Assembly: GCA_037481815.1 (NCBI GenBank)
Contig: JBBFKX010000002.1
Location: 15,300 to 79,299 of the forward strand
Reading direction: 5' to 3'
DNA length: 64,000 bases
Origin: a candidate division WOR-3 bacterium
GTDB lineage: Bacteria; Hydrothermota; 32-111
The notes under the pieces: generated by a model
What the model saw: the letters and a program-made list of their open reading frames with translations, nothing else
The model's database searches: none
What the model was told of the DNA's origin: nothing
Made by a program: the position numbers and the translations under genes
Shown here: in pieces, positions 15,287-53,900 of the stretch
Layout of the letters: each line of letters opens with the position of its first letter
How positions within the stretch are numbered: position 1 is the stretch's first letter

Positions 15287-15341
15287 ATCCCCCTCCTGAC
15301 AGCGAAATAACCATCAAATTTTTTATAATAATTAGAAAAAT

Positions 15342-29791: not shown

Positions 29792-29793
29792 TT

Positions 29794-36690: not shown

Positions 36691-37257
36691 ATGTATAAAA
36701 AAGAGATTGAAAGAAGGTTTCTTGTTATCGATAAAAACTATTCTAAAAAGATATCATTTTTTAACAGGAAAAGAATAATTCAGGGATACTATAGGTCCGA
36801 GGATTTAAAAAAAATAAAAGGTGTTGATGAAATTTTAAAAAAAAATCCTGAATTTATAAATAAAATCGTTAGAATAAGAATTGAAAATAAAAGAGATATC
36901 TTTTTTACACTAAAAAAAGGTGAAGGAATTGAAAGGGATGAATTTGAAATAAAACTTGATTTCGATGAAAAAATTTACAAATTTATGAAAAGTGATAAAA
37001 AAGTTCTGTCAAAAATAAGAGGAGAATTTTTCATTGAAGGATATAAAGCAATTTTAGACAGATATACCAAAAGATACAGAGGGATTGAAATAGTTGAAAT
37101 CGAATTTAAAACCGAACCCGAAGCAAAAAAGTTTCAACCTTCAAAAAGCTTAGTCGAGATAACCAATCTTAATGAGTTATCAAATATGAGTCTCTATTTT
37201 AAGGATGAAAAAGAAATAATTAAAAAAGTTGAGGAGAATTATGGTTATAAAAATTAA
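36691..37257 (+). CDS. CYTH-domain protein (triphosphate tunnel metalloenzyme-like)
   Basis: N-terminal EIERRFLV matches the CYTH ExExK-type start; 188 aa. Confidence 0.55.
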   Translation: MYKKEIERRFLVIDKNYSKKISFFNRKRIIQGYYRSEDLKKIKGVDEILKKNPEFINKIVRIRIENKRDIFFTLKKGEGIERDEFEIKLDFDEKIYKFMKSDKKVLSKIRGEFFIEGYKAILDRYTKRYRGIEIVEIEFKTEPEAKKFQPSKSLVEITNLNELSNMSLYFKDEKEIIKKVEENYGYKN

Positions 37258-38248
37258 AAACAGGATAATAAAGAAGGGGGATATTTTTATCATCGCTGAA
37301 GGAGGGGTTAACCATAACGGTGACATGAATCTAGCAAAAGAACTTATCGTTAAAGCGAAAGAGGCAGGAGCTGATGCTATAAAGTTTCAAACATATAAAA
37401 CAGAAAAGTTGATAATAAAAAACAAAAAAACAGAGAACTTTTTTAATATGATAAAAAGATTGGAACTCTCTGAAGAAGATTTTATAAAATTAAAGGATTT
37501 CGCAATAAAAAATGATATAATCTTTCTTTCAACACCAGATGAGGAAGATTCTTTAAATTTCCTGCTCTCATTAAATCTTCCTGCTATAAAAATAGGTTCA
37601 GGTGAAGCAAACAATATCGATTTTCTCATAAAAGTTGCAAAAACGAAAAAAGTAGTTTTGATATCAACAGGATGCTGTAACGAAGAAGAAATCGATAGAA
37701 TCTATCAAACCGTATACCCTTTGAATAAAAAGATGATACTTATGCATTGTATTTCAGAATACCCTGCTAAGATAGAATCTTTAAACCTTCAATTTATAAA
37801 AAAAATGATAAAAAAATATAATTGCCCGATTGGATTTTCTGATCACACTACTTCCATATTTACTCCATCGATTGCATACATACTTGGGGCAACAGTTATT
37901 GAAAAACATTTTACGCTTGATAAAAATCTTCCAGGACCAGACCATTCATCTTCTCTTGATGTTGGTGAATTCAAAAGTATGGTTAACTTGATTTATGAAA
38001 CAAAGGAAGCACTCGGTAAAGATATAAGGAAGATAACTGAAAGCGAGGACAGGATGAGAAAGTTCATAAGAAAATCTCTTTTTTCCAAAAGTGAGATAAA
38101 AAAAGGTGAAACCTTAACAAAAGAAAATACAATCCTTTTAAGACCAGAAATAGGGATAAGGGCTGATCAGGCAACAAAAGTTTATGGAAAAAGGATAAAA
38201 ATTAAAAAAAATAAATTTAAACCAATATTTTCAAATGAGATAGATTAG
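37229..38248 (+). CDS. N-acylneuraminate-9-phosphate / nonulosonic acid synthase family (NeuB/PseI/LegI-like)
   Basis: IIAEGGVNHNGDMNLAKELIVKAKEAGADAIKFQTYK is the NeuB-family TIM-barrel signature; start ambiguous (37229 or 37241). Confidence 0.8.
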   Translation: MRRIMVIKIKNRIIKKGDIFIIAEGGVNHNGDMNLAKELIVKAKEAGADAIKFQTYKTEKLIIKNKKTENFFNMIKRLELSEEDFIKLKDFAIKNDIIFLSTPDEEDSLNFLLSLNLPAIKIGSGEANNIDFLIKVAKTKKVVLISTGCCNEEEIDRIYQTVYPLNKKMILMHCISEYPAKIESLNLQFIKKMIKKYNCPIGFSDHTTSIFTPSIAYILGATVIEKHFTLDKNLPGPDHSSSLDVGEFKSMVNLIYETKEALGKDIRKITESEDRMRKFIRKSLFSKSEIKKGETLTKENTILLRPEIGIRADQATKVYGKRIKIKKNKFKPIFSNEID

Positions 38249-38403
38249 AAGATGGTGTATATGAATGGAGAAATTGTTGTTGATGTGAATAAAAAGATCA
38301 ATAAACCTAAAAGTAAAATTATGATAATAAGAGGGAGTAACCAGTATTTTTTCTTTTTCAACAAAAATTTCATCAAAGATTTCAGAGTTTTTAAAAATCC
38401 CAT

Positions 38404-38778
38404 TTAGAACGGCTCCTCAATATCAAATTCATCTTCCACATATTTGTTGTAATACGAACTCTCTTGTTTTTTTATATTCTTATAAAACCTTTTATCCATA
38501 ATGTAAAGTATCGGCTTAAACATTAAAAAAATTATATAATAGATTATAACTACTATCAATACTGTAAAAAGAAATGCAACAAACAAAAAGAGTTTATCCA
38601 ACAATTTTTTAGCAATAAATAATTTTTTCGGTAAAAATATTAAAAATAAGAGTGAAACCACTGTTAATGAAAAGAAAAAAATTTTCAGTAATCCAAATTT
38701 TCTAAAGATAAAGGTTAACATTAAAAATATTAAAACTACCTGAACGGATTTTAACCTTTCAATCATTCCTTTTTTCAA
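38404..38778 (-). CDS. small hypothetical membrane protein (3 predicted TM helices)
   Basis: 124 aa, hydrophobic, last gene of the long minus-strand gene string; no family recalled. Confidence 0.35.
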   Translation of the reverse strand: MKKGMIERLKSVQVVLIFLMLTFIFRKFGLLKIFFFSLTVVSLLFLIFLPKKLFIAKKLLDKLFLFVAFLFTVLIVVIIYYIIFLMFKPILYIMDKRFYKNIKKQESSYYNKYVEDEFDIEEPF

Positions 38779-40549
38779 TTTTAAAATCTCCCTTTTTTCT
38801 TACCTGTTCTTCTTTTCGTAACAGAAAATTACCAATTATTAAAACATCTATATCGGTTTCGATGAAAGTTTTAAAAGCATCTTCAGGATTTTCAACTATC
38901 GGCTGTCCCCTTACATTGAAGGATGTGTTTATGACCATAGGACATCCTGTCCTTTCATAAAAATTATAGATTAGCGAATAAAACAGTGGGTTACTCTCTT
39001 TGCTCACAAGTTGAACTCTTGAAGTAAAATCTGAATGGACCACAGATGGGAACTGTGTGATACTTTTCCTAAGAATTTTAAAATCATGTGTGATAAACTC
39101 TTCAGTGTTTTTAAAATCATCTTTAATTTCACATACTGTTAACATATAATGAGTGGGATAACCCTTTTTAAAAATCAGTTCATATTTATCTTCGAGAACA
39201 GCAGGTGCAAGTGGCCTGAAAGATTCTCTGAACTTAATCTTCATGTTCATTATTTTTTGCATTTCAGGATCCGTTGGATCACCTAAAATACTTCTATTTC
39301 CTAAAGCTCTTGGCCCATACTCCATTTTCCCCTGAAACCATCCAACAACTTTTTTCTTGAGTATCTCTTCACAACCAATAACATCAGGATTGGTTATTTT
39401 TTTGTAAACACCATTTAATCTTTTTAAACTTTCCTCGATCTCATGATCTGAATATTCTGTTCCAAGAAAAGAATAATTCTGACAACCCCTGATATTCAAA
39501 TTATAATATCTGTTCGCAACATACAAAGCGGCTCCAAGTGAACCACCAGCATCCCCTGATGCAGGTTGAATAAAAAATTTTTCAGGTTTATAAGATTCTA
39601 AAACTTTAGAATTCGCAACACAGTTTAAACCAACCCCTCCCCCGATTATCAAGTTTTTTTCTTTCGTTTCACTTTTCAACTTTAAAGCCATTTTTATAAG
39701 AATCTCCTCTAAAACCTTCTGAACAGAAGCAGCAATGTCTGCATACACTTCGTTTAAAGGTTGTTCTTCTTTTCTAATCTTTATTCCAAAAAGTTTTTCC
39801 ATCTGTTTCCCACACATCTGTAAACCATTCTGGAAATCAAAAAATTTCAAATTCAATCTGTAAGATCCATCATCTTTGATATCTATCAAATTCTCTTTTA
39901 TCAGAGAAACATACCGTGGAACACCATAGGGGGCAAGCCCCATCAATTTGTATTCACCTGAATTAACTTTAAATCCAGTAAAATAGGTAAATGTTGAATA
40001 AAACATCCCTAAAGAATGCGGATAATCTATAGAATATAGGATCTTTATGCTTTTATCATCAACAACTCCAAGAGTTGTTGTTTCCCATTCTCCAACACCA
40101 TCGTTTACCATAAATGCTGCTCTTTCAAGATCAGATGGATAGAAGGAAGAAGATATGTGTGAAACATGATGTGGAACATAGAATATTTTATAATTCCCCT
40201 TAATCAATTTTCTTAATTTAGATTCAGTATAAAGTTTATCTTTAATCCACAACGGTAAAGAAGTGAAAGCAAACTCAAAATTTTTCGGCGTCGAATAAAT
40301 CAGATTTTCAATTATTCTTTCAAATTTCAAAATCGGTTTATCATAGAAAACAATTGCTTTCAGATTTCCAGGATCAAAATCGAACTTTTTTTTAAGAATC
40401 TCTATTGATAACTCTGGTAACCTTTCATCAAATTTTATTTTAGAAAACCTTTCTTCCTGAAGAGCAGCAATAACCTTACCTTTTTTTATGTACGTTACAG
40501 ACGAATCGTGAAACAATGCCGAAATTCCTAAAATTTCTATTTCACTCAT
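38759..40549 (-). CDS. carbamoyltransferase (NodU/CmcH/TobZ family)
   Basis: 596 aa; N-terminal ILGISALFHDSSVTYIKKGKVIAALQEERFSKIK matches the carbamoyltransferase N-domain. Confidence 0.8.
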   Translation of the reverse strand: MSEIEILGISALFHDSSVTYIKKGKVIAALQEERFSKIKFDERLPELSIEILKKKFDFDPGNLKAIVFYDKPILKFERIIENLIYSTPKNFEFAFTSLPLWIKDKLYTESKLRKLIKGNYKIFYVPHHVSHISSSFYPSDLERAAFMVNDGVGEWETTTLGVVDDKSIKILYSIDYPHSLGMFYSTFTYFTGFKVNSGEYKLMGLAPYGVPRYVSLIKENLIDIKDDGSYRLNLKFFDFQNGLQMCGKQMEKLFGIKIRKEEQPLNEVYADIAASVQKVLEEILIKMALKLKSETKEKNLIIGGGVGLNCVANSKVLESYKPEKFFIQPASGDAGGSLGAALYVANRYYNLNIRGCQNYSFLGTEYSDHEIEESLKRLNGVYKKITNPDVIGCEEILKKKVVGWFQGKMEYGPRALGNRSILGDPTDPEMQKIMNMKIKFRESFRPLAPAVLEDKYELIFKKGYPTHYMLTVCEIKDDFKNTEEFITHDFKILRKSITQFPSVVHSDFTSRVQLVSKESNPLFYSLIYNFYERTGCPMVINTSFNVRGQPIVENPEDAFKTFIETDIDVLIIGNFLLRKEEQVRKKGDFKIEKRND

Positions 40550-42404
40550 ATTTGAAATCTTTAATATACGATTTTAAAATTTGACGAACATTACCTTCAG
40601 AATTTGTGAAATCATCAACCATTTTTTCAATTTTATCATTCTCTAACTTCTCCACTAAAAGAATTTTAAAGATCTTATCAAACCTTGTTTTTTCTATCTG
40701 TTCCTCTTCTCTATACAGTTCCTCATAAAGTTTTTCTCCTTTTCTTATTCCAGTATAAACTATCTTTATATCCTTATGGGGAACATAACCATACATTCTT
40801 ATAATGTTCTCTGCAATATCATTTATTTTTACGGGTTTCCCCATATCGAGCATAAATGTTTCCCCACCTTCTCCAATACCTGCTGCTTCGAGACAAAGTG
40901 TTACCGCTTCCGCAATCGTCATAAAATATCTTGTCATATTTTTATCTGTTACCGTAACTGGCCCCCCGTTTTTTATCTGTTCTTCAAAAATTGGAATAAC
41001 ACTTCCCCTTGATCCAAGAACATTTCCAAATCTTACAGCGAAGTATTTTGTCAGAGGATCTTTCTGAGAAACAACAAGCATTTCTCCAATCCTTTTTGTA
41101 GCACCCATTATCGAAGATGGTTTAACAGCTTTATCAGTTGATATATAAAGAAATCTTTTAACCTTCCCTTTCGATGCTTTAATTAGATTGAAAGTTCCTA
41201 AAATATTTGTTTTTACAGATTCATAAGGGAATTCTTCACATATTGGGACATGTTTTAAAGCTGCAGCATGAAAGATGATGGATATTTTTTCTTTTTCAAT
41301 AACCTTTACCATATCTGAAAAATTCCTGATATCAGCAAGAACTATTTTTATATCTTTTGAATATCTCTGCTTCATTCTTTCCTTAAGATAAAAAAGTTCA
41401 GTTTCGTTTATATCAAGTGCATACACATTTGCAGCTTTAAATTTAACAACCTGGTTTATAATCTCACTACCGATCGATCCAGCAGCACCTGTAACAAGTA
41501 CATTCTCTCCATCAAGATAACTGCCTATCAATCCAAGATCATATGAAACCTTTTCTCTCCCCAAAAGGTCTGTAATGTCTATATTTCGTACATCTTTTGA
41601 AGATACTTTCCCATCAACAATACTATCAACCGATGGAAGAACTTTTATTTCTTTACATCCACTTTTTTCCAAATTTCTGTATATCTTCTGTAAATTTTCT
41701 CTATCAAGAGATGGTATCGCTATCAGTACAGTGTAACAATCGTTCTCCTTCATTACACTTTTTAAAATCTCGCTCCCACCAACAACCTTTAATCCATGAA
41801 TCCTGTTTCCTTTTTTCTTTGGATCATCATCAATGAATAGGATAGGATTGTACTCACTTTTTCTTGAAAGCATATCCCTTACAATCTGTTCACCAGCATC
41901 CCCTGCACCATAGATAATAATTTTTTTCCTTTTTTCCATCTCCCTTCGACCTTCAAAAGAGAGCAAAAACCTTTTTAAACTTCTCAAAGTCAAAAGAAAC
42001 CAGAGTGAGAAGAAATAATCAAGAAAAAAAACCGATCTAGGTAAAAAGGAAAGAATTTGATTCTTCAAAAAGAATAGAGATATGTAAAAGGAAATAAACT
42101 GTGAAAAAGTCAGTGCGATTCCAAGTTTTATAGCATCCTTAAAAGAAAAATACCTCCAGTTGAAAGAATATATATCAAAAATAAACAGAAAAAAAATTTT
42201 GGAAACAATAAAAATTGGAAGGAAGTTTTTATAGAGTTTAAAATTTAAAAAGACCTCCGTTATACTGAATCTGATACTGAATGAAAGAAAATATGATAAT
42301 GTGAAAAGAAACAGATCAAACAGAACAAAAAAAATTATTCTTTTCAGATAACTAGGTTTAAACAGATCTTCTTTCAAAAAATTCTTTAATCTTTTTATAA
42401 ACAT
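40542..42404 (-). CDS. membrane-anchored UDP-sugar 4,6-dehydratase (CapD/PglF/WbpM family)
   Basis: N-terminal 4 TM helices, two Rossmann regions (IIIYGAGDAGEQI and LVTGAAGSIGSEI); start uncertain, the ORF-track start 42458 overlaps the upstream gene by about 100 nt. Confidence 0.8.
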   Translation of the reverse strand: MFIKRLKNFLKEDLFKPSYLKRIIFFVLFDLFLFTLSYFLSFSIRFSITEVFLNFKLYKNFLPIFIVSKIFFLFIFDIYSFNWRYFSFKDAIKLGIALTFSQFISFYISLFFLKNQILSFLPRSVFFLDYFFSLWFLLTLRSLKRFLLSFEGRREMEKRKKIIIYGAGDAGEQIVRDMLSRKSEYNPILFIDDDPKKKGNRIHGLKVVGGSEILKSVMKENDCYTVLIAIPSLDRENLQKIYRNLEKSGCKEIKVLPSVDSIVDGKVSSKDVRNIDITDLLGREKVSYDLGLIGSYLDGENVLVTGAAGSIGSEIINQVVKFKAANVYALDINETELFYLKERMKQRYSKDIKIVLADIRNFSDMVKVIEKEKISIIFHAAALKHVPICEEFPYESVKTNILGTFNLIKASKGKVKRFLYISTDKAVKPSSIMGATKRIGEMLVVSQKDPLTKYFAVRFGNVLGSRGSVIPIFEEQIKNGGPVTVTDKNMTRYFMTIAEAVTLCLEAAGIGEGGETFMLDMGKPVKINDIAENIIRMYGYVPHKDIKIVYTGIRKGEKLYEELYREEEQIEKTRFDKIFKILLVEKLENDKIEKMVDDFTNSEGNVRQILKSYIKDFKYE

Positions 42405-43518
42405 ATTTCTGCTCCATAACAGAGAGTCCAGTAAAAAATGGAATAGCAACAAGTTCATCAGATATTTTTTCAGTTACAGGGAAATCTCCATTTTTAAAAC
42501 CAAAAATTTTTTTATAGAAGGGTTGAAGGTGTATTGGATAAAAATACCTTTTTGAAGATATTCCACTTTTATTTAAAAATTCTATTAACTCGTTTCTAAT
42601 CTTTTTATCCACAAATATATAAAATAAAAACCATGAATTCTTTTGCCCTTCAATCAAAGAAGGCAACTTTATCTCCTTTATTCTATTCAACAACTCCATA
42701 TATCTTTTCGCAACATTCTCTCTTCTTTTTAAAATTTCTTCCAGATTTTCCATCTGTGCCAAGCCAATAGCTGAATTTATATCACTAACCCTGAAATTGT
42801 ATCCAAGATATCTATGTATAAAGTTCGGGTCACCTTCCATCCTTCCCTGATTTCTTAACGCTTTAAGATAAAGATAGAGTTTTTTATCATCGGTTACAAT
42901 CATTCCACCTTCACCTGTTGTAATCTGCTTATTCGGATAGAAAGCGAAAACTGCCCCCCTCCCAAAAATACCAGATTTTTTACCTTTAAATTCACTCCCA
43001 AGCGATTCTGACGAATCCTCAAACAATAAAAGATTGTAATCGTTACATAACTCTTCGATCTTTTGATAATCACACAGATTCCCAAGAATGTCTACCGAGA
43101 GGATACCTTTTAAAATTTTTCCATTTTTTTTGTTCACAATTTTTTTGCCCTTTTTTTTATAATCACTTTTTATCTTCCTTTCGATCAGATCAGGAGAAAT
43201 ACACAAACTCTTTTCATCTATATCGACAAAAACCGGACTTGCATTACAGTACAAAATCGAATTTGCAGATGCTATGAATGAAAAAGGGGTTGTAATTATT
43301 TCATCGTTACTTTGAATTCCAGCTGCTTTTAAAAGTAGGAAGAGTCCAGCGGTTCCAGATGATACCATAACGGCATATTTTCTACCAACATAATCTTTAA
43401 ATATGTTCTCAAATTTCTCTGTATATTCCCCCATGCTGAGTTTTTCAGATTTAAGCAGAAAATCCACATACTTTTTTTCATTACCTTTAAAATACAAACC
43501 AGATAATGGAATCTTCAT
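42358..43518 (-). CDS. DegT/DnrJ/EryC1/StrS-family PLP aminotransferase
   Basis: 386 aa; N-terminal LSMGEYTEKFENIFKDYVGRKYAVMVSSGTAGL and PLP-Lys region FYPNKQITTGEGGMI. Confidence 0.85.
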   Translation of the reverse strand: MKIPLSGLYFKGNEKKYVDFLLKSEKLSMGEYTEKFENIFKDYVGRKYAVMVSSGTAGLFLLLKAAGIQSNDEIITTPFSFIASANSILYCNASPVFVDIDEKSLCISPDLIERKIKSDYKKKGKKIVNKKNGKILKGILSVDILGNLCDYQKIEELCNDYNLLLFEDSSESLGSEFKGKKSGIFGRGAVFAFYPNKQITTGEGGMIVTDDKKLYLYLKALRNQGRMEGDPNFIHRYLGYNFRVSDINSAIGLAQMENLEEILKRRENVAKRYMELLNRIKEIKLPSLIEGQKNSWFLFYIFVDKKIRNELIEFLNKSGISSKRYFYPIHLQPFYKKIFGFKNGDFPVTEKISDELVAIPFFTGLSVMEQKYVYKKIKEFFERRSV

Positions 43519-43519
43519 A

Positions 43520-44545
43520 TCATTTCTTTTTCAAAAAGATTTTTCTTCCTTTCCTTGATGCATCATATATAGCCATAATAAGTTCAAGAGATTTCCTTCC
43601 CTCTAAACCATCAGTCAACGGCACACTATCCTTTTCAAGTGAGTTTAAAACATTCTCATAATATGCAAAATGTCCTTCACCGTAAACATTCTTTGGAACA
43701 TAGTTAACCTTTTCAATCATAGCATCGTCATCATCATATTTTTCGAATTCCCATTTTTCAATCCTGTTCAGAGCTGTTCCCCCGATTTTGACTGTCCCTT
43801 TTTCACCGATAACCGTGATCGAACCTTCATAGTTTCTTGGATAGGTTAGCATCGTTACCTGTATAACACCCAAAGCTCCATTTTTATATCTTAAAACTGC
43901 TCCACCTGTATCCTCTGTTTCTATCTTTCGTGCGAGTCGTGCAGTTATTGAAACAACTTCTTTAACTTCTCCACCGAGCCAGACCATAAGATCAACATAA
44001 TGGGATGCCTGATTCAAAAAAGCACCACCATCATACTTCCATGTCCCTCTCCACTTTGCCTGTTCATAATACTCTTGTGGCCTATTCCAGTATACGGTTG
44101 TATTTATAAAATATATTCTTTCAAACCTGTTTTTTTCAATTGCACTTTTTAAAAGTTGAACAGTTGGGTTTAATCTGTTCTGTTTAACAACAAAAAGTTT
44201 GACTTTATTTTTTTTACATTCATTTATAAGTTGATCGGCATCCTTGAGATTTACAGCCATCGGTTTTTCGGTTAGAACATTTATTTTTCTTCTTGCTGCC
44301 ATCATACCATGAATCGGATGTAATCCTGAAGGAGTACAGATAGATAAAAGGTCAAGTTCCTCATTTGAAAGCATATCTTCGAGATTTTTGTAGTATGGTA
44401 CATCAAACCTTTCAGCTGATCTTTTTGCTTTTTCTAAAACTATATCGCACACAGCAACAAGTTTTATTCTTTCATTGAATTTTTCATATACCTCAAAATG
44501 TTTTTCAGATATTCTGCCACATCCAACAAGCCCAACTCTTATCAT
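43520..44545 (-). CDS. Gfo/Idh/MocA-family NAD(P)-dependent sugar oxidoreductase
   Basis: N-terminal IRVGLVGCGRISEKH Rossmann motif; 341 aa. Confidence 0.8.
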   Translation of the reverse strand: MIRVGLVGCGRISEKHFEVYEKFNERIKLVAVCDIVLEKAKRSAERFDVPYYKNLEDMLSNEELDLLSICTPSGLHPIHGMMAARRKINVLTEKPMAVNLKDADQLINECKKNKVKLFVVKQNRLNPTVQLLKSAIEKNRFERIYFINTTVYWNRPQEYYEQAKWRGTWKYDGGAFLNQASHYVDLMVWLGGEVKEVVSITARLARKIETEDTGGAVLRYKNGALGVIQVTMLTYPRNYEGSITVIGEKGTVKIGGTALNRIEKWEFEKYDDDDAMIEKVNYVPKNVYGEGHFAYYENVLNSLEKDSVPLTDGLEGRKSLELIMAIYDASRKGRKIFLKKK

Positions 44546-45486
44546 ATAACACCTCTAAAATATTGTATCGTTTTAGAGAGCCCTAATTCAATGGGAACAC
44601 CATTCTTGTATCTTAAAACTTTCCTTGCAAGTGTTAGATCAGGTTTTCTCTTAACAGGGTCATCAGCAGGCAAATCTTTAAAAACTATCTTTGATTTTGA
44701 TTTTGTTAATTTTATAATCGTTTGTGCTAAATCGATAATCTTGATCTCTTCATCTGAACCAAGGTTTACAGGGCCTGTAAAGTTAGGTTCACTATCGCTT
44801 AATTTTATAATACCCTCTATAAGATCATCTATATAACAAAAAGATCTTGTTTGTGTCCCATCTCCATAAACAGTTATATCACGATTTCCAAGGGCCTGGA
44901 CGATAAAATTTGAAACAACTCTACCATCATCTTTTGACATATATTCTCCATAGGTGTTGAATATTCTACAAACTTTTACTTCAATATTAAAATTTCTATA
45001 ATATTCAAAAGTTAAAGTTTCAGCCACCCTTTTTCCTTCATCATAACAAGCCCTAACACCTATAGGGTTTACATTCCCCCAATAATTTTCATTCTGTGGG
45101 TGCACCAGTGGATCTCCGTATATTTCAGATGTTGAACTTAGAATAAACTTTGAACCAGTTTTTTTTGCAACCTCAAGCATATTCATTGTTCCTATAAAAT
45201 TTGTTTTCAAAGTTTCCAGAGGATATTTTTGATAAAATTTTGGGGAAGCCATTGAAGCAAGATGAAAAATTTTTTTTATGTCCCTGTATTCTATCTGTAT
45301 TTTTTTAGAAACATCTTTTTTAAAAAATTCAAAATTTTTAAACTTTTTTAAAATTTTTAAATTTTCAAGTGAACCAGAGGAAAGGTTATCAATTCCTAAA
45401 ACTCTCTCTCCTCTTTTCAACAGGTATAACGAAAGATTTGTTCCAATAAAACCAGCACAACCAGTTATCAAGTTTATTTTTACCAT
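44542..45486 (-). CDS. NAD-dependent nucleotide-sugar epimerase/dehydratase (UDP-glucuronate decarboxylase-like)
   Basis: ITGCAGFIG motif, Y-x3-K (YDEGKR); 314 aa; adjacent to a UDP-sugar 6-dehydrogenase. Confidence 0.65.
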   Translation of the reverse strand: MVKINLITGCAGFIGTNLSLYLLKRGERVLGIDNLSSGSLENLKILKKFKNFEFFKKDVSKKIQIEYRDIKKIFHLASMASPKFYQKYPLETLKTNFIGTMNMLEVAKKTGSKFILSSTSEIYGDPLVHPQNENYWGNVNPIGVRACYDEGKRVAETLTFEYYRNFNIEVKVCRIFNTYGEYMSKDDGRVVSNFIVQALGNRDITVYGDGTQTRSFCYIDDLIEGIIKLSDSEPNFTGPVNLGSDEEIKIIDLAQTIIKLTKSKSKIVFKDLPADDPVKRKPDLTLARKVLRYKNGVPIELGLSKTIQYFRGVI

Positions 45487-46802
45487 CCGATCCCTTTATA
45501 GTTTTTCGAACTTTTCTTTTCAGGGAAAATGTTCACAAGATCTACGACTATAAGTTCCTTTTTGTTATATGAGTTCAACAATTCTCTGTAAGAGTTGTCT
45601 CTATTGGCAACAACAACGAGTTCTACATTATCCAGAAATTTTTGTGGATCCTCTACAAGAATTTCAGAAATATGTTTTATCTCTCTTTCAATATATTCTT
45701 TATTGGAACCAACCAGTTTTGAAAGTTTTACATTTTCATCATATATTAAAACATTTTTACCTTTACCTAAAAGTTTCTCAACAAGAACAACCGATGGAGA
45801 TTCTCTTAAATCATCTGTCCCACTTTTAAATGTTATACCCATCACTCCAATTCTATTTACCTTTTCTTTTAAGATTAAATCAAAAGCCCAATCGATATGA
45901 AGATCGTTGGAATCCATTATATTTTCGATTATAGGTAAAGATAATCCATTCCTTTTGGATTCATAAGACAAAGCTCTTACATCCTTCGGTAAACATGAAC
46001 CACCGAATGCGAATCCTGGTTTTAAATAATATTCAGATATATTTAGTTTTCTATCCATAAGGAAAAGTTCCATCACTTCTCTGCTATCGATCCCTTTCTT
46101 TTTACATATTCTTGCGATTTCATTAGCGAAACCAACTTTTAACCCATGAAAGGTGTTGTTAACATATTTAAGCATTTCAGCAGTTTTTATAGATGTTACG
46201 ATAAATGGCGCTTCAAGAAATGAATACATCTGTCTTATTATCCTTTCACTCGCCTCACATTCACAACCTATAAGAGTATAAGGAGGGTTATAGAAATCGT
46301 TTACAGCATTACCTTCCCTTAAGAATTCAGGATTTGACAGAACATCAAAATCTTTTTTCCTTTTCTTTCCACTTATACTCTGGACTATCTCGGCATACTT
46401 ATCAACGGTTCCGGGCATCGATGTTGACCTTATGAGTATAAGGTACTCTCTTTCAAAATTTTCCTTTTTCCTCAAAGCATCACCTATCTGTTGGGCAGTT
46501 TTAAAAATGTATGAAAGATCAACCTCTCCAGTTTCTGAAGACGGAGTTCCTACACAGATCAATGCGATATTGGTATTCTTAACCGCATACTCAAAATCAT
46601 CTGTTGCCTCAAGATTCCCGGCTTTTACAACTTTTGATACTATCTCATTGATATAGGGTTCAACTATAGGGGATCTTCCATTGTTGACTTCAGAGATTTT
46701 TATATCGTTTATCTCAACCCCTATAACTTTGTATCCCTGCTCTGCCAAACATGCAGCGGATATTATACCAACATAACCCAAACCAAAAACAGCGATCTTC
46801 AT
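45480..46802 (-). CDS. nucleotide-sugar 6-dehydrogenase (UDP-glucose dehydrogenase-like)
   Basis: N-terminal KIAVFGLGYVG, catalytic Cys region GFAFGGSCLPKD; 440 aa. Confidence 0.8.
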   Translation of the reverse strand: MKIAVFGLGYVGIISAACLAEQGYKVIGVEINDIKISEVNNGRSPIVEPYINEIVSKVVKAGNLEATDDFEYAVKNTNIALICVGTPSSETGEVDLSYIFKTAQQIGDALRKKENFEREYLILIRSTSMPGTVDKYAEIVQSISGKKRKKDFDVLSNPEFLREGNAVNDFYNPPYTLIGCECEASERIIRQMYSFLEAPFIVTSIKTAEMLKYVNNTFHGLKVGFANEIARICKKKGIDSREVMELFLMDRKLNISEYYLKPGFAFGGSCLPKDVRALSYESKRNGLSLPIIENIMDSNDLHIDWAFDLILKEKVNRIGVMGITFKSGTDDLRESPSVVLVEKLLGKGKNVLIYDENVKLSKLVGSNKEYIEREIKHISEILVEDPQKFLDNVELVVVANRDNSYRELLNSYNKKELIVVDLVNIFPEKKSSKNYKGIGW

Positions 46803-48967
46803 TTTTCACCTTCTTTTGTATGATAATGATAATAATAATGATAATAGTAATATTTCCCATAGAAACTTTCGGTGTTAACATTGTTAAAAACAAAACCAAC
46901 TAATGGTATATTAAGATTTTTCAACAATTTTTTTGTATAGTGTAACTCTCTTTTTTTCGCTTTTTTAAATTGAACAACCCAGAGTAAACCATCCGATAAC
47001 CTTGAAATTATTGTAGGGTCTGCAACCGAAAGTATCGGAGAAGTATCAACTATGATAAAATCAAACATCCCTTTTAACTGTTCAAAAATTTTTCTTGTCA
47101 ATTTCCCTTCAAGTAGTTCAGTTGAATGAGATGTCCTTTCACCATAAGGTATTATCCATAGATTCTCAATTCCACTTGGATATATAACCTTTTCAACACT
47201 TGTTTCCCCTTTCAGTATGTTTGTAAAACCTTTATCAAAACTTAAATTAAACATTTTATCGATCACAGGTCTTCTCAAATCTCCATCTATCAAAAGAACC
47301 TTTTTGTCCAGTTGTGCTAAAACGATGCTAAGGTTTGATGCGGTAGTTGATTTCCCTTCACCTTTTGTGGCTGATGATACAACGATTATTTGGGGAGTTT
47401 TTGTTCCTTCGGAAAGATATAAAAGGTTTGTTCGAAGAATTTTATACGATTCAACAATCGGTGAATTTTCTGGAACTTCAGTTAAAAGTTTACTCCTTTC
47501 ACTAACCATCGTTTTCCCATTTTTGAGTTTAATCAAAGGGATATTACCAATTATATTAACTTTTAATTCTCTTTCAATTTCATCTATATCCTTTACAGAA
47601 TCGTCTATATATTCTTTAATAAACACTGCACCTATTCCCAGTATTATGGCAAGAAAGAATCCAAAAAGATAATTTCTGTTTTTCTTTGGTAAAACTGGAT
47701 TTTTATTCAACACAGGTTTATCTATTATCTTTACAGAACCAAGTTTACCAGCTTCTGCCACTTTTGCCTCTTCAAATTTTCCTTTCAACATCAGATAAAG
47801 TTCCTCTGAAACTTTTTTATTTCTTTCAAGTCGTGCAAGCATAAGTTCCTGATATGGGATCTTTTTCATCTTATCTTCAAAAATTTTTATCACATTGTTT
47901 AACGCTTCAATCATCGACTCCTTAACTTTTATTTCAAGTTGAACCGATACGATTTCGTCCATAAGACTTTTTGAATAATCCAAAGGATTGGTTGCGAAAT
48001 ATTTTTCAGTCAAAGATTTTTTACTGTTGGTCACTATGTTGTTTTTCAAATTTTCAACCCTTATCTTTATCTCCTTCATTTTCGGATGTGATGTGTCGTA
48101 TCCAAGTGATAGAAAATATGCATAGGATGACTGTAAAGAATCGAGTTCCTTCATAGATCTTTCAAGGAAGGGATTAAGTTCATTCAAAAATCCTTCAGCC
48201 ATCATTTTGTTCGACTGGGAAAGGTTCTCTTTTAGATAATTCAATTTTGCAAGAAGCATCTCCCTTTCAACATAGTTCTGTTTTTTCTGACCTTCAAAAT
48301 TTGATATCATATCAACAAGTTTTGAGGTCTCTTCGGTGAGTTCGATAATAGAATTATTCTCTTTAAACTTTTTTAAATTTTCTTCATTTATTTGTAGATC
48401 ATTTTCTATTTTAGTTAACTGTTCTTCGAGAAATTTTCTCACCTCACTCAATTCTCCCCTAGTCATTTCAAGGTTAATATTGTAATACTGCTCAACTATG
48501 ATTTTTGTTATATAGAAAGCATCCTCTGGACTCTTATCATTATAGATTATTTTCAAAATATCAGTATCCTTAACCGGGATCACTGTGAGATTTTTTTTGA
48601 GATATGATATCCTTGCTTCTTTTTCTTTAAATTTACCTATATAAAGAGAGTCAAGATAACCACTGTTTGATATAACATTTTCGACTCTTTCAAAAAGAGT
48701 TCTGGATTGAACCATTTCTATGTGGTTATTTATAACAGTTTGTCTTGGATTTAGATCCCTTATAGGTAAAAATGAAAGTCCTTTATCACTTGTTTCAATT
48801 AGTATCAGTGAAGTAGATTGATAGGTTGGTTTTGTAATTTTCGTTATCAAAAAAACAAGAACGATCACAATAAAAAATGTTGTTAAAAACAAAATTTTAT
48901 TCTCGAGTAAAAGAAAAAAATATGTCTTTAACTCTTTTCCTTCCTCTTCTATAACCCTCTCCGGCAT
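46799..48967 (-). CDS. polysaccharide co-polymerase / tyrosine autokinase (Wzc-like BY-kinase)
   Basis: Wzz-like N-terminal TM plus coiled coil, second TM, Walker A SSATKGEGKST, C-terminal Tyr-rich tail YGKYYYYHYYYHYH. Confidence 0.75.
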   Translation of the reverse strand: MPERVIEEEGKELKTYFFLLLENKILFLTTFFIVIVLVFLITKITKPTYQSTSLILIETSDKGLSFLPIRDLNPRQTVINNHIEMVQSRTLFERVENVISNSGYLDSLYIGKFKEKEARISYLKKNLTVIPVKDTDILKIIYNDKSPEDAFYITKIIVEQYYNINLEMTRGELSEVRKFLEEQLTKIENDLQINEENLKKFKENNSIIELTEETSKLVDMISNFEGQKKQNYVEREMLLAKLNYLKENLSQSNKMMAEGFLNELNPFLERSMKELDSLQSSYAYFLSLGYDTSHPKMKEIKIRVENLKNNIVTNSKKSLTEKYFATNPLDYSKSLMDEIVSVQLEIKVKESMIEALNNVIKIFEDKMKKIPYQELMLARLERNKKVSEELYLMLKGKFEEAKVAEAGKLGSVKIIDKPVLNKNPVLPKKNRNYLFGFFLAIILGIGAVFIKEYIDDSVKDIDEIERELKVNIIGNIPLIKLKNGKTMVSERSKLLTEVPENSPIVESYKILRTNLLYLSEGTKTPQIIVVSSATKGEGKSTTASNLSIVLAQLDKKVLLIDGDLRRPVIDKMFNLSFDKGFTNILKGETSVEKVIYPSGIENLWIIPYGERTSHSTELLEGKLTRKIFEQLKGMFDFIIVDTSPILSVADPTIISRLSDGLLWVVQFKKAKKRELHYTKKLLKNLNIPLVGFVFNNVNTESFYGKYYYYHYYYHYHTKEGEK

Positions 48968-48976
48968 AAAAACTCC

Positions 48977-50284
48977 TTAAAGTTTAATGATATTCTTGCT
49001 CTTAACCTTTTTAAAACCATTTCTCGTATCAAATATGATCTTTGCATTTTTTGCAACCATTTCATAATCAAAAGAAGAGTGGTCTGTCAGAAGAATAACA
49101 CAATCAAATTTTCTTATTTCATTCTCTTTAATACTCTTTAAAACTTTTACCTTCTTATGTTCACCCTTTTCGTCTATAAAACTGTTAACCATTGGATCAT
49201 AAACCGTTACCAAAGCTCCCATCTCTTTCAACAGATGGTATACCTCAAGAGCAGGCGATTCTCTTAGGTCATCAATATCTTTTTTATAAGTTATCCCCAT
49301 CAACAAAATTTTTGAACCATTTAGTGTTTTTTTATATTTATTTAAAATCTCTGTAACCTTATTCAAAACAAATCTCGGCATGTTTGAATTTACATCTGAA
49401 GCAAGTTCAATAAATCTGTTGTAGTAATCATACATCTTTGCTTTCCAGGAAAGATACATAGGATCGAGAGGTATACAATGACCACCGATTCCAGGTCCTG
49501 GATAAAATGGCATAAAACCAAAAGGTTTTGAAGATGCTGCCTCTATTACATTCCAGATATCTATTCCCATCCTATGACACATGATTGCAAGTTCGTTTAC
49601 AAGTCCTATATTCACTGCTCTGAACGTATTTTCCAGTAATTTCACCATTTCAGCTTCCTCAGGGGAATTAACCGTTATCACCTTCTCTATAACCTGTTCA
49701 TACAACATTTTTGTGATCAGTGTATCTTTATCAGTTATTCCTCCAACAACTTTTGGAGTATTTTTTGTATTGTATCTGGGATTACCTGGATCAACCCTTT
49801 CTGGAGAAAATGCAACAAAAAAATCTTTTCCCACTTTATAACCAAAATTTGAAACTCTTTCAGCAATAAGTTCTCTTGTAGTTCCTGGGTAGGTAGTAGA
49901 TTCCAGAACTATAAGCATATCTTTATGAAGATATTTAACTATCTCATCCATTGCACCGGTGATATATGATACATCTGGATCTTTACTTTTTTGAAGTGGA
50001 GTCGGAACGGCTATCAAAACACAATCAGATTTTTTTACAACAGAATAATCGGTAGTGGGTAAAAATCTTTTGTTAACAACATCTTTAACATCTTTATTAT
50101 CAACATCAAGAATATACGACTCGCCCTTTTTTAAAAGTTCAACTTTCTCTCTCAATAGATCTATTCCATAAACAAAAAAACCTGCTTTTGCGAATTCAAC
50201 AGCAAGCGGTAAACCAACATAACCAAGACCAACTACCGAGATTACAGATTTTTTATCTTTAACCTTTTGAAGTAGAACACTCAT
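48977..50284 (-). CDS. UDP-N-acetylhexosamine 6-dehydrogenase (WecC/TviB/WbpA-like)
   Basis: N-terminal ISVVGLGYVGLPLA, catalytic Cys region GPGIGGHCIPLDP; 435 aa. Confidence 0.8.
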   Translation of the reverse strand: MSVLLQKVKDKKSVISVVGLGYVGLPLAVEFAKAGFFVYGIDLLREKVELLKKGESYILDVDNKDVKDVVNKRFLPTTDYSVVKKSDCVLIAVPTPLQKSKDPDVSYITGAMDEIVKYLHKDMLIVLESTTYPGTTRELIAERVSNFGYKVGKDFFVAFSPERVDPGNPRYNTKNTPKVVGGITDKDTLITKMLYEQVIEKVITVNSPEEAEMVKLLENTFRAVNIGLVNELAIMCHRMGIDIWNVIEAASSKPFGFMPFYPGPGIGGHCIPLDPMYLSWKAKMYDYYNRFIELASDVNSNMPRFVLNKVTEILNKYKKTLNGSKILLMGITYKKDIDDLRESPALEVYHLLKEMGALVTVYDPMVNSFIDEKGEHKKVKVLKSIKENEIRKFDCVILLTDHSSFDYEMVAKNAKIIFDTRNGFKKVKSKNIIKL

Positions 50285-50300
50285 GAAAATCCTCCTTTAT

Positions 50301-50915
50301 TTATATTACAAGTAAAGATATTATATAATCCAAATACTCATCTATGTCAATAGAATTAACTCTTTCCATCTGGTAAGGCTCAAAATCTACTGGAATCTTT
50401 CTATTCTTTAAAAAATCTTTTACATTAAATATATAAAATGCACCGTTCTGCCTATATATATTTTTGTAAGGAATTAGAATTAAACCATCTTCCGATGAAA
50501 AGAACATGTGTTCTTTGTTTTCAATTTTTTCTACAGAGATTACAGTTTTTTTCTTTTCTGAAAACAAAAATAGAGCTTCTTTTAAATCATTTTTGCTTCT
50601 CAAAGGTGATGTCGGTTGAAGTAAAATTATAACATCATCATTTTTCATTTTATATTTTTTGATCATATATAAAATCAATAGATCCATAGTAGTAGTCGCT
50701 TTTGCGAGTCGTTTAGGCCTTAAATCAAAAACGACTTTTGAATGCATTAAAGAGCCCATCCTTTTGTCTGAAGAAACTATAATTTTATCAAAAATTTCAG
50801 ATTCAATGGCAAAATCTAAGGTTATTTCAAAAAGAGTTTTTCCTGAAATCCTCACAAAATTTTTATTTTTAACCCTTCTGCTTTCACTTTTAGCAGGTAT
50901 TAAAGCGTAAATCAT
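50301..50915 (-). CDS. acylneuraminate (nonulosonate) cytidylyltransferase-family protein
   Basis: N-terminal ALIPAKSESRRVKNKN resembles the IPAR-x-S-x-R/KN motif of CMP-sugar synthetases; 204 aa. Confidence 0.65.
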   Translation of the reverse strand: MIYALIPAKSESRRVKNKNFVRISGKTLFEITLDFAIESEIFDKIIVSSDKRMGSLMHSKVVFDLRPKRLAKATTTMDLLILYMIKKYKMKNDDVIILLQPTSPLRSKNDLKEALFLFSEKKKTVISVEKIENKEHMFFSSEDGLILIPYKNIYRQNGAFYIFNVKDFLKNRKIPVDFEPYQMERVNSIDIDEYLDYIISLLVI

Positions 50916-50917
50916 TT

Positions 50918-53900
50918 TTATCCAAAGAATATATCTCCAAAAGTTTCCTTTTCAATTTTTTCATCTCTTTTTTCTAACTCTTGATTTTTTTCTTCAAACC
51001 ATCTTTCTAAAGACACTCTTTCCATCTTTTCTTTTTCCATATCCTCTTTTTCTTTCTTAGAGATATCCGGTATTCTATGTTCTTCAGTCTTTCTTTCCCC
51101 AGAAATTTCATGTTGCATCTTTTCCTGTAAGGTCTCACTCATCCTATCCTTTTCCTCATTCAATTTTTTAATCTCTTCTTCAAGATTTTTGATCACATTA
51201 TCTTTTTGTTCATAATCAACTTTCTTTGAAGAAACTTCATGTTTTAACCTGTTATTTTCCTTAATGAGATTTTCGATCTTCATTTTTAAATCTTTTATGG
51301 TTTCATCCTTTTTATTGATTTCGACAGATAGATCCTTTTGGTATAGAGATTCATTATCTTTTGCAAGTTCTATTTTTTCATGTAAGATCTTCAACTGCTG
51401 CTTTTTTTCTTCAATCTCATTCAAAGTCTTTTCTTTTTCCAAATCATATTTTTCTTTTTCAACTTTTGAGATTTCAACTTCTTTCTTAATCTGTTCATAC
51501 ATACCTTTCATCTTTTCGATTTCATTTTTTATCTGCTCATACTGTTTTTGCATCTGTTTTTCTATTCCAGCAATTTTGATCATCTTTTGTGTTGTTTCGG
51601 TAAACTCTTTTTTAAGATTCTCAGTTTTTACTTGAAGATCAATATATTCCTGCTGAAGAGATTGCCTGCTTTCCGTTATTTTAGCGATTTCTGACTTTTT
51701 ACCATTTATTTCCTCATTTATTGTAAAGAGCTCTTTTCTCATATTCAAAAGAAGTTTTTCTTTTTCAGCCAGTTCCATCTCAATGTTCTTTTTGATATTT
51801 TCAATTTTTTCAAGACCTAAAACGGCAGCCAGTTTTCTTTCCTGATTTTTTCTTAAAATTATTATTTCGTCCAACTTATTCTTTATCTTTAATAGTTGAT
51901 TTAAACTCATCTTGGTTTCTATTATTTGCGGAGAATCTCCTTCAACCGGTTTGAATTCTCTTATATTTGGAAAATCTGTTTCAATCTTTTGAATCTTTTC
52001 TTCAAGTTCACCAAGATCGATTCTCTTTTCATTTATAGTTGTGTTCAGTCTTATTTCTTCTTTCTTCAAAGATTCTATTTCATTTTCAAGAGATTCCTTT
52101 TGTAACTGAAGATCTTCGATATCCATCATCGACATTTTAAGCGTGTTCTGTATCTCTTCAAGTTTTTCATTTTCCTGTTTTATCCTATTTCCTATCTCTT
52201 TTGATTCTTTTTCCTTTTCAAGCAACCATCTGGTTATCTCATCCTTATCATTTTTTAAAGAAACGAGTTCGTTGTTAAGTTCTATGATCTCTTCATCGAT
52301 CCGATTCTTCTCTTTTTCAAGATCTTCTATAACACCTGATGTCTCTTTGATTCTTTTTTGAAAATTATTTTCAAATTCATTGAGTTCTCTCTTCTTTTCT
52401 TCTATAATCTTTTCCAGATTCTCCTTTTCTTTTAAAACCTGCTCAGTTTCTTTTTTTGAAAGTTGAAGTCTGTTTTCATTTTCATCGAGCAATTCTTTCA
52501 ATTCTTTTTCTTTTATCTGGCATTCTTTTTCCTTTTGACTTAACTCTTGTTCGAACTCCAGCAGTACCTTTTTCAACTCTTCTATTTTCAAATTTTTTGC
52601 TTCGATTTCTCTATCCAGTTCATTTTTTTGATTATTTATTTTTTCGAGTTCGAGTAAAAGTTGTTTTCTCTCCTGTTCCTTTCCGTTGAAATTTTCAAGT
52701 ATCATTTCAGCATTAACTTTTAGCTGCTCAAGTTCCTGCTTATCCTCTTCTATCTGTGAAGTTAGTTTTTCTTTCTCTTTCCTCAATTTTAACACTTCAT
52801 CAAAAATATTTTCCTTTTCTCTTTTTAACTCCTCTATTTCTCCAGCAAGTCCTTTTTTCTGTTTTTCAAACTCGTTCATCTCGTTCCTTATTTCAGTATA
52901 TCTATCTGAAAAACCTGAATACTCCCTCATCAATTCATCCAGTTTTTTCTCTTCCTTTTTGATGGAATTCACAAGTTGGAGTAGTTCTCCATTTTTTGCC
53001 TTTATTTCCTTTTCAAGGGTATCTTTTCGTTTTTCATCATTTTTTATTATTCCTGAAAGTTCATTGAAGTATGATTCTTTAGTTTTTATTTCTTTTTCCT
53101 TTTCATTAAGTTTTTCAGTCAAAATGTTATATTCCAAATCTAATTTTTTGAGCGTTTGGCTTTTTTCATCGATTTCATCTTCTATTTTTTTAATATTGTT
53201 TTTCAATCGCTCTTCAGTTTTTTCAAGATCATCTATAACCTTTCTTGTTTTTTGATTTTCTTCTTTTAAATCATCTCTTTCTTTTTCGTATTGTTTTATG
53301 GTCCTTTTCAAATCGTTTATCTTTTCTGTCAATTCGAGTTCATCACCAAGAGAAACTCCCATGCCGGATTCGATTTTTTCGAGATATTTTTTCTTATCAT
53401 TTATCTTTTGTTCTAAAAGATTTAAACTGTTTTCATCCTCTTCAAATTTTTTCTTTAAACTTGAATATCTTTTTTCAAGATTTTTTAATTGCTCGGTTTT
53501 CTCCTTTTCCTCTTCTTTCAAAGATTCAAGATTTTTGCTGACCTTTTCAAAAGCAGTTTTGTTCTCTTCTAGTTCTCGTCTTAAAATTTCATTTTTCCTT
53601 TCTTCCTCTTCATTTTCCTTTCGTAGTTCAGAGAGTTTCTTCTCTTCCAGATCATATTTCGCTTTCAACTCTTCAAAGTCCTGTAATGTACCATTTTTTT
53701 CTTTTCTTATATTTTCAAGTTCTTTTAATATTTTTTCCTTTTCTCTCTTTCTTTCCTCAATATCTATTTCAAGATTAGTTATCTCCATTTCAATTGATTC
53801 TTTCTTTTTATTCAAATCATCAACTGTTTTCTCTTTTTCCTTCGTTAACCTTTCGATCTCTTTTTTTAATTCATCTAATCTTTTTTCCCTTTCATTTATT

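Follow-up and report, generated by a model that had tools for sequence, protein, structure and literature searches.

A syntenic nucleotide-sugar gene block with a Wzc-type tyrosine kinase in a candidate division WOR-3 bacterium

Which activated sugars do candidate division WOR-3 bacteria provide for their cell surface? To our knowledge nothing has been established experimentally about the WOR-3 cell envelope, and we know of no cultured member of the group. The question is raised by a block of glycan genes in a 64,000-nucleotide stretch (~30% G+C) of contig JBBFKX010000002.1 of a WOR-3 metagenome-assembled genome (assembly GCA_037481815.1); the whole stretch was analysed and is called the window below. 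An initial annotation had placed the block at 37229-50915 and had predicted a surface polymer with a sialic-acid-like nine-carbon sugar, uronic acids and possibly O-carbamoylation. We consider it reasonably probable that the block is an operon, conserved in this lineage, for the supply of nucleotide sugars, and that, together with a Wzc-type co-polymerase and tyrosine autokinase, it feeds the synthesis of a surface or extracellular polysaccharide. Family membership, catalytic motifs, overlapping genes and a conserved gene order were observed in the block; its substrates, its final sugars and its polymer are inferred.

Gene layout and conservation of the block

All ten gene-family assignments of the initial annotation were confirmed by Pfam and NCBIfam domain annotation and by matches to known structures. 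Pfam was run on 50 of the window's 54 open reading frames (ORFs) of at least 150 amino acids (aa), and this is the set meant below by scanned ORFs. The genes had been described as co-directional. This does not hold for the nonulosonic-acid synthase NeuB, whose gene is on the plus strand and converges with a minus-strand array running from 50915 to 38245. In the direction of transcription this array encodes a cytidylyltransferase, a UDP-N-acetylhexosamine (HexNAc) 6-dehydrogenase, Wzc, a UDP-glucose 6-dehydrogenase (UGDH), a UDP-xylose synthase (UXS), a WlbA-type oxidoreductase, a DegT-family aminotransferase, a PglF-type dehydratase, a carbamoyltransferase (CT), a small membrane protein of 124 aa (TM124) and a DUF5989 protein. 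From the cytidylyltransferase gene to the DUF5989 gene each junction is an overlap or a gap of at most 16 nt, and the stop codons of the DUF5989 and NeuB genes share 4 nt. The UGDH and UXS genes overlap by 7 nt, 1 nt separates the WlbA-type gene from the DegT gene that comes after it, the start of the CT gene overlaps the stop of the PglF-type gene by 8 nt, and the CT gene overlaps that of TM124 by 20 nt. Start/stop overlaps join UGDH-UXS-WlbA on the one hand and PglF-CT-TM124 on the other. The block itself is real, but the unit is wider than had been proposed, taking in a gene for a CYTH-domain (triphosphate-tunnel) protein (36691-37257, plus strand) at one end and possibly a coiled-coil gene at the other; two small membrane genes (38245-38778) are also present within it. 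The start of NeuB is likely the ATG at 37241 rather than the TTG at 37229, and gene callers report the corresponding 335-aa product. The true start of the PglF-type dehydratase is probably downstream of 42458.

A CT-alignment scan of bacterial genomes in GTDB (one genome per species) yielded 34 loci, which were then searched with all window proteins by tblastn. The order HexNAc dehydrogenase-Wzc-UGDH-UXS-WlbA-DegT-PglF-CT-TM124-DUF5989 with a convergent NeuB gene was found in seven species-level genomes (L011-L016, L041), in which protein identity to the window falls from ~95% to ~52-60% and that of CT from 94% to 60%. Neighbourhoods of NeuB and cytidylyltransferase homologs in WOR-3/TA06 assemblies added synteny in L003, L005/L006, L009 and L010. 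At least nine WOR-3/TA06 assemblies share the block in syntenic form, the convergent NeuB gene included, which marks it as a conserved core operon and not a variable island; together with the strong domain E-values this conservation puts the block far beyond chance. In L005 and L016 the flank beyond NeuB differs and encodes cargo proteins of a type IX secretion system (T9SS), and NeuB still adjoins the operon, which argues for a real link between the two.

At the upstream end the limits of the operon are less sharp. The coiled-coil gene (50918-54850, minus strand) is separated by 2 nt from the cytidylyltransferase gene on its downstream side and by 8 nt from a Xer recombinase gene on its upstream side, and counterparts of 1314 aa in L009 and 1272 aa in L010 are encoded at this place. 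The protein had no Pfam match and only weak matches to coiled coils of the SMC/Rad50 type. Its 1310 residues are rich in Glu (22.5%) and Lys (17.4%), it is cytoplasmic with no transmembrane (TM) segment, and its gene accounts for the extreme AT/GC skew of this region. In all, 15 co-directional genes (57749-38245, minus strand) follow one another with gaps that never exceed 16 nt, an order that is kept in L009 and L010. Since the packing continues into housekeeping genes, spacing alone does not define the functional unit in so compact a genome. Promoter and terminator scans made to delimit the operon gave counts equal to the shuffled expectation.

Predicted nucleotide-sugar branches

The first branch is that to UDP-xylose. 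UGDH (45480-46802, minus strand; 440 aa) has all three UDPG_MGDP_dh domains and matched TIGR03026 with 405 bits, over the cut-off; its best equivalog models, AglM and TuaD, were matched under their cut-offs. UXS (44542-45486, minus strand; 314 aa), a UDP-glucuronate decarboxylase, matched structures of human UXS1 with E=8e-95, residues 6-312 being covered. UGDH would oxidize UDP-Glc to UDP-GlcA, and UXS would convert the latter to UDP-xylose. As UXS is encoded beside UGDH, UDP-GlcA is most simply seen as an intermediate toward UDP-xylose, and glucuronic acid is probably not an end product.

A second set of enzymes suggests a route to a 2-acetamido-3-amino uronic acid. The HexNAc 6-dehydrogenase (48977-50284, minus strand; 435 aa) matched TIGR03026 with 436 bits and Cap5O with E=2e-67, the UDP-ManNAc dehydrogenase and TviB models were matched under their cut-offs, and the family match fits either GlcNAc or ManNAc as the sugar. 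The Gfo/Idh/MocA oxidoreductase (43520-44545, minus strand; 341 aa) gave full-length matches to two structures, 3q2k (E=7.8e-112) and 3q2i (E=1.1e-110), followed at a large distance by the next structure (3e-23). We take 3q2k and 3q2i to be WlbA, a UDP-GlcNAcA 3-dehydrogenase, from Bordetella pertussis and from Chromobacterium violaceum, which was reportedly described by Thoden and Holden in 2011 (work cited in PMC10622841). On this identity the window enzyme is classed as a WlbA-type UDP-GlcNAcA 3-dehydrogenase. The DegT-family protein (42358-43518, minus strand; 386 aa) matched PF01041 with E=2.9e-107. Its best curated model was LegC (326 bits, cut-off 420), followed by PseC (292 bits), and among structures it matched perosamine synthetase best (2.7e-57), then QdtB and PglE (3.4e-43), with WbpE at 2.2e-33. 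It may aminate C3, C4 or both. In the predicted branch UDP-GlcNAc would be converted to UDP-GlcNAcA by the HexNAc dehydrogenase, to UDP-3-keto-GlcNAcA by the WlbA-type enzyme and to UDP-GlcNAc3NA by DegT; it would end before N-acetylation and 2-epimerisation. The uronic acids of the initial annotation thus have their dehydrogenases in the block, but they are largely intermediates on the way to UDP-xylose and to a 3-amino uronic acid.

The third branch would begin with the membrane-anchored UDP-GlcNAc 4,6-dehydratase of the PglF/CapD/WbpM type (40542-42458, minus strand; PF02719 E=3e-105). Its N-terminal membrane and CoA_binding_3 region has the hydrophobic character typical of PglF/WbpM/CapD, as read off the sequence, and the PseB and FnlA models were matched under their cut-offs. 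The enzyme bears the triad T441-x9-M451-x3-K455, a T-x9-M-x3-K arrangement reported for PglF, CapE and SpsM (PMC7439481). After amination by the same or another aminotransferase, NeuB and the cytidylyltransferase could yield a nonulosonic acid of the legionaminic (Leg) type, provided that genes outside the window, or non-canonical enzymes, supply the two steps that are missing.

NeuB (37241-38248, plus strand; 335 aa) matched PF03102 with E=2.9e-76 over profile positions 1-239 of 241. It scored 329.7 bits with NeuB_NnaB (TIGR03569, cut-off 399.65) and 260.2 bits with PseI (TIGR03586, cut-off 340.25). In alignment with Neisseria meningitidis NeuB (1xuu) we inspected the residues that were reportedly described by Gunawan et al. 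in 2005 as catalytic or as binding metal or phosphoenolpyruvate (E25, K53, Q55, T110, K129, S132, E134, S154, N184, Y186, S213, H215, E234, H236, D247, F288 and R314). All of them were kept except N184, which is Ser, and Ser likewise stands at this position in the alignment with PseI (8h2c). The catalytic role of E134 in NeuB has been confirmed (PMC8208679). A SAF/antifreeze-like domain (PF08666) was not called by Pfam in NeuB, nor among the precomputed domains of the WOR-3 clade; the alignments with 1xuu and 8h2c nevertheless extend at the C terminus across their SAF region, R314 included.

Phylogeny had been suggested as a means to tell neuraminic (Neu), pseudaminic (Pse) and Leg synthases apart. 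In a neighbor-joining tree with 100 bootstraps the 23 closest NeuB homologs (at least 50% identical, mostly WOR-3) formed one clade with 100/100 support, but this clade paired with none of PseI, SpsE, Leptospira NeuB and N. meningitidis NeuB (32-37% identity each), and assignment of the sugar type by phylogeny was rejected. The next relatives (44-48% identity) are environmental proteins labelled NeuB/LegI. Taking into account that NeuB is under both equivalog cut-offs and falls in a separate clade, no sugar type can be assigned to it; in a large analysis, too, NeuB and LegI were inseparable by phylogeny (PMC8208679). Bacillus subtilis SpsE, in spite of its spore-coat name, is itself a legionaminic-acid synthase (PMC7439481), and for this reason even a grouping of NeuB with spore-coat synthases would be compatible with a nonulosonate product.

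The cytidylyltransferase (50301-50915, minus strand; 204 aa), a putative CMP-nonulosonate synthetase, is a short and divergent member of the acylneuraminate family. It matched PF02348 (E=1.8e-16), the PseF model with 74 bits (cut-off 206), CMP-NeuAc synthetase 1eyr (E=4e-15) and 6ifd (E=5e-15), and it falls in a WOR-3-only clade to which ordinary acylneuraminate cytidylyltransferases are at most 39% identical. Nonulosonic-acid synthesis, as suggested by these enzymes, is plausible. The prediction of a sialic-acid-like sugar finds support in the NeuB residues, the cytidylyltransferase and the conserved adjacency; it is weakened by a pathway that is incomplete in the window and by the sub-threshold NeuB scores.

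Gene context tells more here than the tree does. NeuB proteins of the same clade were also found in an alternative WOR-3 operon (L008 10001-15701; L007 5163-11008), where they are 55% and 50% identical, respectively, to the window protein. This operon encodes CYTH, NeuB, two proteins without family match (335 and 317 aa), a CBS plus nucleotidyltransferase protein (PtmE-like), a dehydratase resembling LegB (372 bits, E=2e-111) and a creatininase-family hydrolase. Neither a LegG/NeuC-type gene nor a recognisable acetyltransferase gene was found in the alternative operon of L008 and L007. The 335-aa protein of L008 was considered as a DegT-like aminotransferase and rejected, having a weak collinear match (E=0.057) and no family match.

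The CYTH gene overlaps the NeuB start by 17 nt. Its 188-aa product gave no match in direct Pfam and family searches; a profile made from it and three homologs matched the CYTH structures 2fbl/3typ (E=4e-4), and its N-terminal EIERrFLV motif aligned with CYTH proteins. Exhaustive HMMER searching retrieved 297 relatives, and Pfam CYTH was present in six of ten sampled. A homolog is found at the same position by NeuB in L008 (9450-10004; hhalign probability 96%), and the CYTH-NeuB pair is kept in two different WOR-3 operon contexts. The gene is not present in every genome: a 194-aa ORF adjoining NeuB in L005 was tested as a candidate and is not CYTH. CYTH enzymes are not known to take part in nonulosonic-acid synthesis.

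Carbamoylation module, Wzc kinase and export genes

CT (38759-40549, minus strand; 596 aa) belongs to the NodU/CmcH/TobZ family, with a Kae1-like N domain (PF02543, E=4.8e-74) and a YrdC-like C domain (PF16861, E=9.1e-66), and was matched from end to end by PDB 7xb6 (E=2.6e-75), NovN (E=3.8e-75), GdmN and TobZ. Downstream of it, TM124 (38404-38778, minus strand) was recognized as a small multi-pass membrane protein by its hydrophobic segments. It gave no match in Pfam, NCBIfam and PHROG searches and is conserved in WOR-3 relatives. Its identification as SxtJ (PF19588) was tried and rejected: there was no Pfam match at E up to 1, and hhalign gave 1.2% with the Pfam-SxtJ protein of L030. The last gene (38245-38403, minus strand) encodes a single-pass membrane protein of 52 aa with PF19451 (DUF5989, E=1e-16), which we take to be an SxtK-like family. 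DUF5989 is kept beside CT homologs in several phyla.

The two membrane partners suggest that the CT reaction takes place at the membrane, with a UDP-sugar or else a lipid-linked or nascent glycan as its acceptor. CT and its partners would carbamoylate one of the sugars or the nascent glycan there, using carbamoyl phosphate and ATP like the enzymes of the TobZ family. Carbamoylation, which had been proposed with a hedge as O-carbamoylation, is supported by the overlap with the PglF-type gene and by conservation, and the module is dispensable in one lineage. Outside WOR-3, CT homologs are 40-46% identical and belong to Acidobacteriota, Nitrospiraceae, Sphingobacteriales and one gammaproteobacterium, often near DUF5989 and without the sugar genes. 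In a Sphingobacteriales metagenome-assembled genome (MAG) (L030 7446-16686) the order is Acyl_transf_3, GDSL, CT, GDSL, DUF5989, Pfam-SxtJ and GH20, which looks like another glycan-modification context.

Wzc (46799-48967, minus strand; 722 aa) is a bacterial tyrosine kinase (BY-kinase) and polysaccharide co-polymerase of the PCP-2a type, with Wzz, GNVR and AAA_31 matches. Its Wzz/GNVR periplasmic domain lies between two TM segments, TIGR01007 was matched with 155 bits, over the cut-off, and the P-loop part has Walker A (GEGKST), A' and B motifs followed by a C-terminal Tyr cluster, YGKYYYYHYYYHY. In the proposed operon Wzc would control polymerisation and export. It is flanked by the genes of both 6-dehydrogenases. 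The mapped phosphorylation site of Staphylococcus aureus Cap5O is Tyr89. UDP-sugar dehydrogenases are known substrates of BY-kinases, the site in Escherichia coli Ugd being Tyr71 (PMC2516531). When these two mapped target tyrosines were aligned with the window dehydrogenases, they fell on Val and Ser, and phospho-regulation of the two flanking dehydrogenases by Wzc has no support at the level of sites.

Glycosyltransferases, flippase/polymerase and the outer-membrane exporter of the polysaccharide would be encoded elsewhere. The suggestion to look for the missing polymerase and flippase outside the block was followed without success: no cognate Wza, Wzx/Wzy or phosphatase was found among the scanned ORFs of the window or in the ~2.5 kb of contig beyond its left end, which encodes ACPS and MurJ only. 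The window does have the separate ABC-transporter-dependent locus (10794-17218) that had been reported, with genes for glycosyltransferases of families GT4, GT4 and GT2, for RmlD, Wzt and Wzm.

Some other features of the window were recorded. Tandem GWxTD-domain proteins of 386 and 439 aa (21365-23841, plus strand) are encoded between lysine-biosynthesis genes (dapB, amino-acid kinase, asd) and the gene of an FAD-dependent (fumarate-reductase/NadB-like) flavoprotein. A Ras-like small GTPase and a Roadblock/LC7 protein (29204-30291, minus strand), resembling an MglA/MglB pair, adjoin a methyl-accepting chemotaxis protein gene. The gene at 34913-36619 (minus strand), which comes after one for LemA, codes for a membrane protein of 568 aa that weakly matched GIDE (E3 ligase-like); in L003 and L004 the pair of LemA and this protein is kept beside the CYTH-NeuB genes.

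Alternative explanations and relation to known systems

A number of observations weigh against the block being one sugar-supply operon. As the initial annotation had noted for Wzx/Wzy and glycosyltransferases, the scanned ORFs of the block yielded no glycosyltransferase, Wzx, Wzy or Wza. Among the scanned ORFs of the window no N-acetyltransferase of the PglD/LegH/SpsD/PseH/WbpD type was found, and no hydrolysing 2-epimerase of the NeuC/LegG/SpsG type, PseG or WbpI. NeuB, DegT, the dehydratase and the cytidylyltransferase are all under the NCBIfam equivalog cut-offs, and a single aminotransferase, nearer to perosamine synthetase/LegC than to WbpE, stands against two producers of keto-sugars. 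In two independent assemblies CT is reduced to an N-terminal remnant of 144-145 aa (L003 11183-11620; L004 11193-11627) and the two small membrane genes have been lost, although the other operon genes are intact, which shows that the carbamoylation module is dispensable. Finally, the packed run extends upstream into genes for a metallo-beta-lactamase (MBL) hydrolase, a beta-CASP nuclease and the Xer recombinase, the contig of a sister MAG is only 1.39 Mb, and the tight spacing may stem from genome compaction rather than from co-function.

In its broadest form the doubt is that several independent sugar-nucleotide pathways were packed side by side in a compact genome of ~1.4 Mb and do not form one glycan system. 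They would then have separate outlets, such as the Wzm/Wzt O-antigen-like polymer of 10794-17218, protein glycans and a Wzc-dependent exopolysaccharide. The block without glycosyltransferases, next to an ABC-transporter locus that has three, would fit this explanation, as would a gap-free array that includes the MBL, beta-CASP and Xer genes, and the uninformative promoter and terminator scans do not speak against it. We hold it to be rather unlikely, however, because the order of the sugar genes and NeuB is kept down to ~55-60% protein identity while the flanking genes change, and overlaps link UGDH-UXS-WlbA and PglF-CT-TM124. More narrowly, the operon's intermediates might not lead to a nonulosonic acid. 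The PglF-like enzyme and DegT would make a 4-amino-6-deoxy sugar of the bacillosamine/QuiNAc4N type, the same transaminase would take the keto product of WlbA, and NeuB/CYTH with the cytidylyltransferase would be unlinked or form a separate minimal pathway, for example a Kdn- or Neu-type one from a phosphorylated hexose with CYTH as the phosphohydrolase. This second explanation, which we judge improbable, is consistent with the missing Leg/Pse acetyltransferase and hydrolysing epimerase in the window, with NeuB lying in a different transcription unit and being translationally linked to the CYTH protein, with a cytidylyltransferase gene 12 kb off at the operon's opposite end, and with the inseparability of NeuB and LegI by phylogeny (PMC8208679). 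LegC as the best curated model of DegT (326 bits) points the other way, as do the LegB-like and PtmE-like genes accompanying members of the NeuB clade in L008 and L007 and the conserved adjacency of NeuB to the PglF/DegT operon.

That CT belongs to an unrelated pathway and is in the operon by chance only appears very doubtful. The deletion in L003/L004, which leaves the rest intact, and the homologs outside WOR-3, which lie amid acyltransferase_3, GDSL, methyltransferase and GH20 genes without the sugar genes, are what such an explanation would predict. But the CT gene overlaps both of its neighbours (see above), seven species-level genomes have it in the same place, and the outside contexts (Acyl_transf_3, GDSL, GH20) are also glycan-modification-like. 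A quite speculative variant of the sugar-supply operon, to which we give little credence, would be a non-canonical nonulosonic-acid route in which CYTH replaces a phosphatase or nucleotidase/2-epimerase, and CT with its membrane partners replaces the N-acetyltransferase, so that the resulting amino sugar or nonulosonate would bear a carbamoyl group, possibly as N-carbamoyl/ureido. If true, it would explain why neither the window-type nor the L008-type cluster has an acetyltransferase or a NeuC/LegG-type gene.

Returning to the sugar-supply operon, which we prefer, the predicted product is a surface polymer with xylose and a 3-amino uronic acid, with either a 6-deoxy amino sugar or a nonulosonic acid of the Leg type, and with optional carbamoyl groups. 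It is a fairly ordinary activated-sugar gene cluster; the unusual parts are the CYTH-NeuB pair, the CT/TM/DUF5989 genes within a sugar operon, and the missing acetyltransferase and epimerase. The operon provides concrete predictions of surface chemistry for WOR-3 and does not overturn current understanding. It adds an environmental NeuB clade that fits no curated Neu or Pse model, and it puts the uncharacterised CT/DUF5989 module among sugar genes, a setting in which the substrate of the module might be identified.

Parts of the operon resemble known systems. With the Wzc systems of the group 1 capsule and colanic-acid type, in which Ugd is regulated (PMC2516531), it shares a PCP-2a Wzc with a C-terminal Tyr cluster beside UDP-sugar dehydrogenases; it differs from them in having no Wza, Wzb, Wzx or Wzy nearby. 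In the saxitoxin cluster the SxtI, SxtJ and SxtK genes are 1839, 405 and 165 bp long, and the function of SxtJ and SxtK is unknown (PMC2679770). The arrangement is similar here, with a CT of ~600 aa first, then a membrane protein of ~125-135 aa and lastly one of ~52-54 aa, but the middle protein has no detectable homology to Pfam SxtJ, and the setting is a sugar operon rather than alkaloid biosynthesis.

The Wbp/Wlb pathway to UDP-ManNAc3NAcA consists of five enzymes (WbpA, WbpB/WlbA, WbpE/WlbC, WbpD/WlbB and WbpI/WlbD; PMC10622841), and the route also serves A-type lipopolysaccharide (A-LPS) of Porphyromonas gingivalis (PMC4031482). The HexNAc 6-dehydrogenase, the WlbA-type 3-dehydrogenase (E~1e-112) and the adjoining DegT would correspond to the first three of these five steps. 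No WbpD/WlbB acetyltransferase or WbpI 2-epimerase was found among the scanned window ORFs, and the block's DegT scored 119 bits with WbpE as compared to 198 bits with perosamine synthetase. The UDP-linked Leg pathway of B. subtilis has six enzymes (SpsM, SpsC, SpsD, SpsG, SpsE plus SpsF), of which a PglF-type dehydratase acts first (PMC7439481). The window differs from it in having neither an SpsD-type N-acetyltransferase nor an SpsG-type hydrolase/2-epimerase among the scanned ORFs, and in that NeuB is 37% identical to SpsE and paired with a CYTH protein. It is similar in having four of the six enzymes, namely a PglF-type dehydratase with the triad, DegT, NeuB and the cytidylyltransferase, and the dehydratase gene of B. 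subtilis likewise lies away from that of the synthase.

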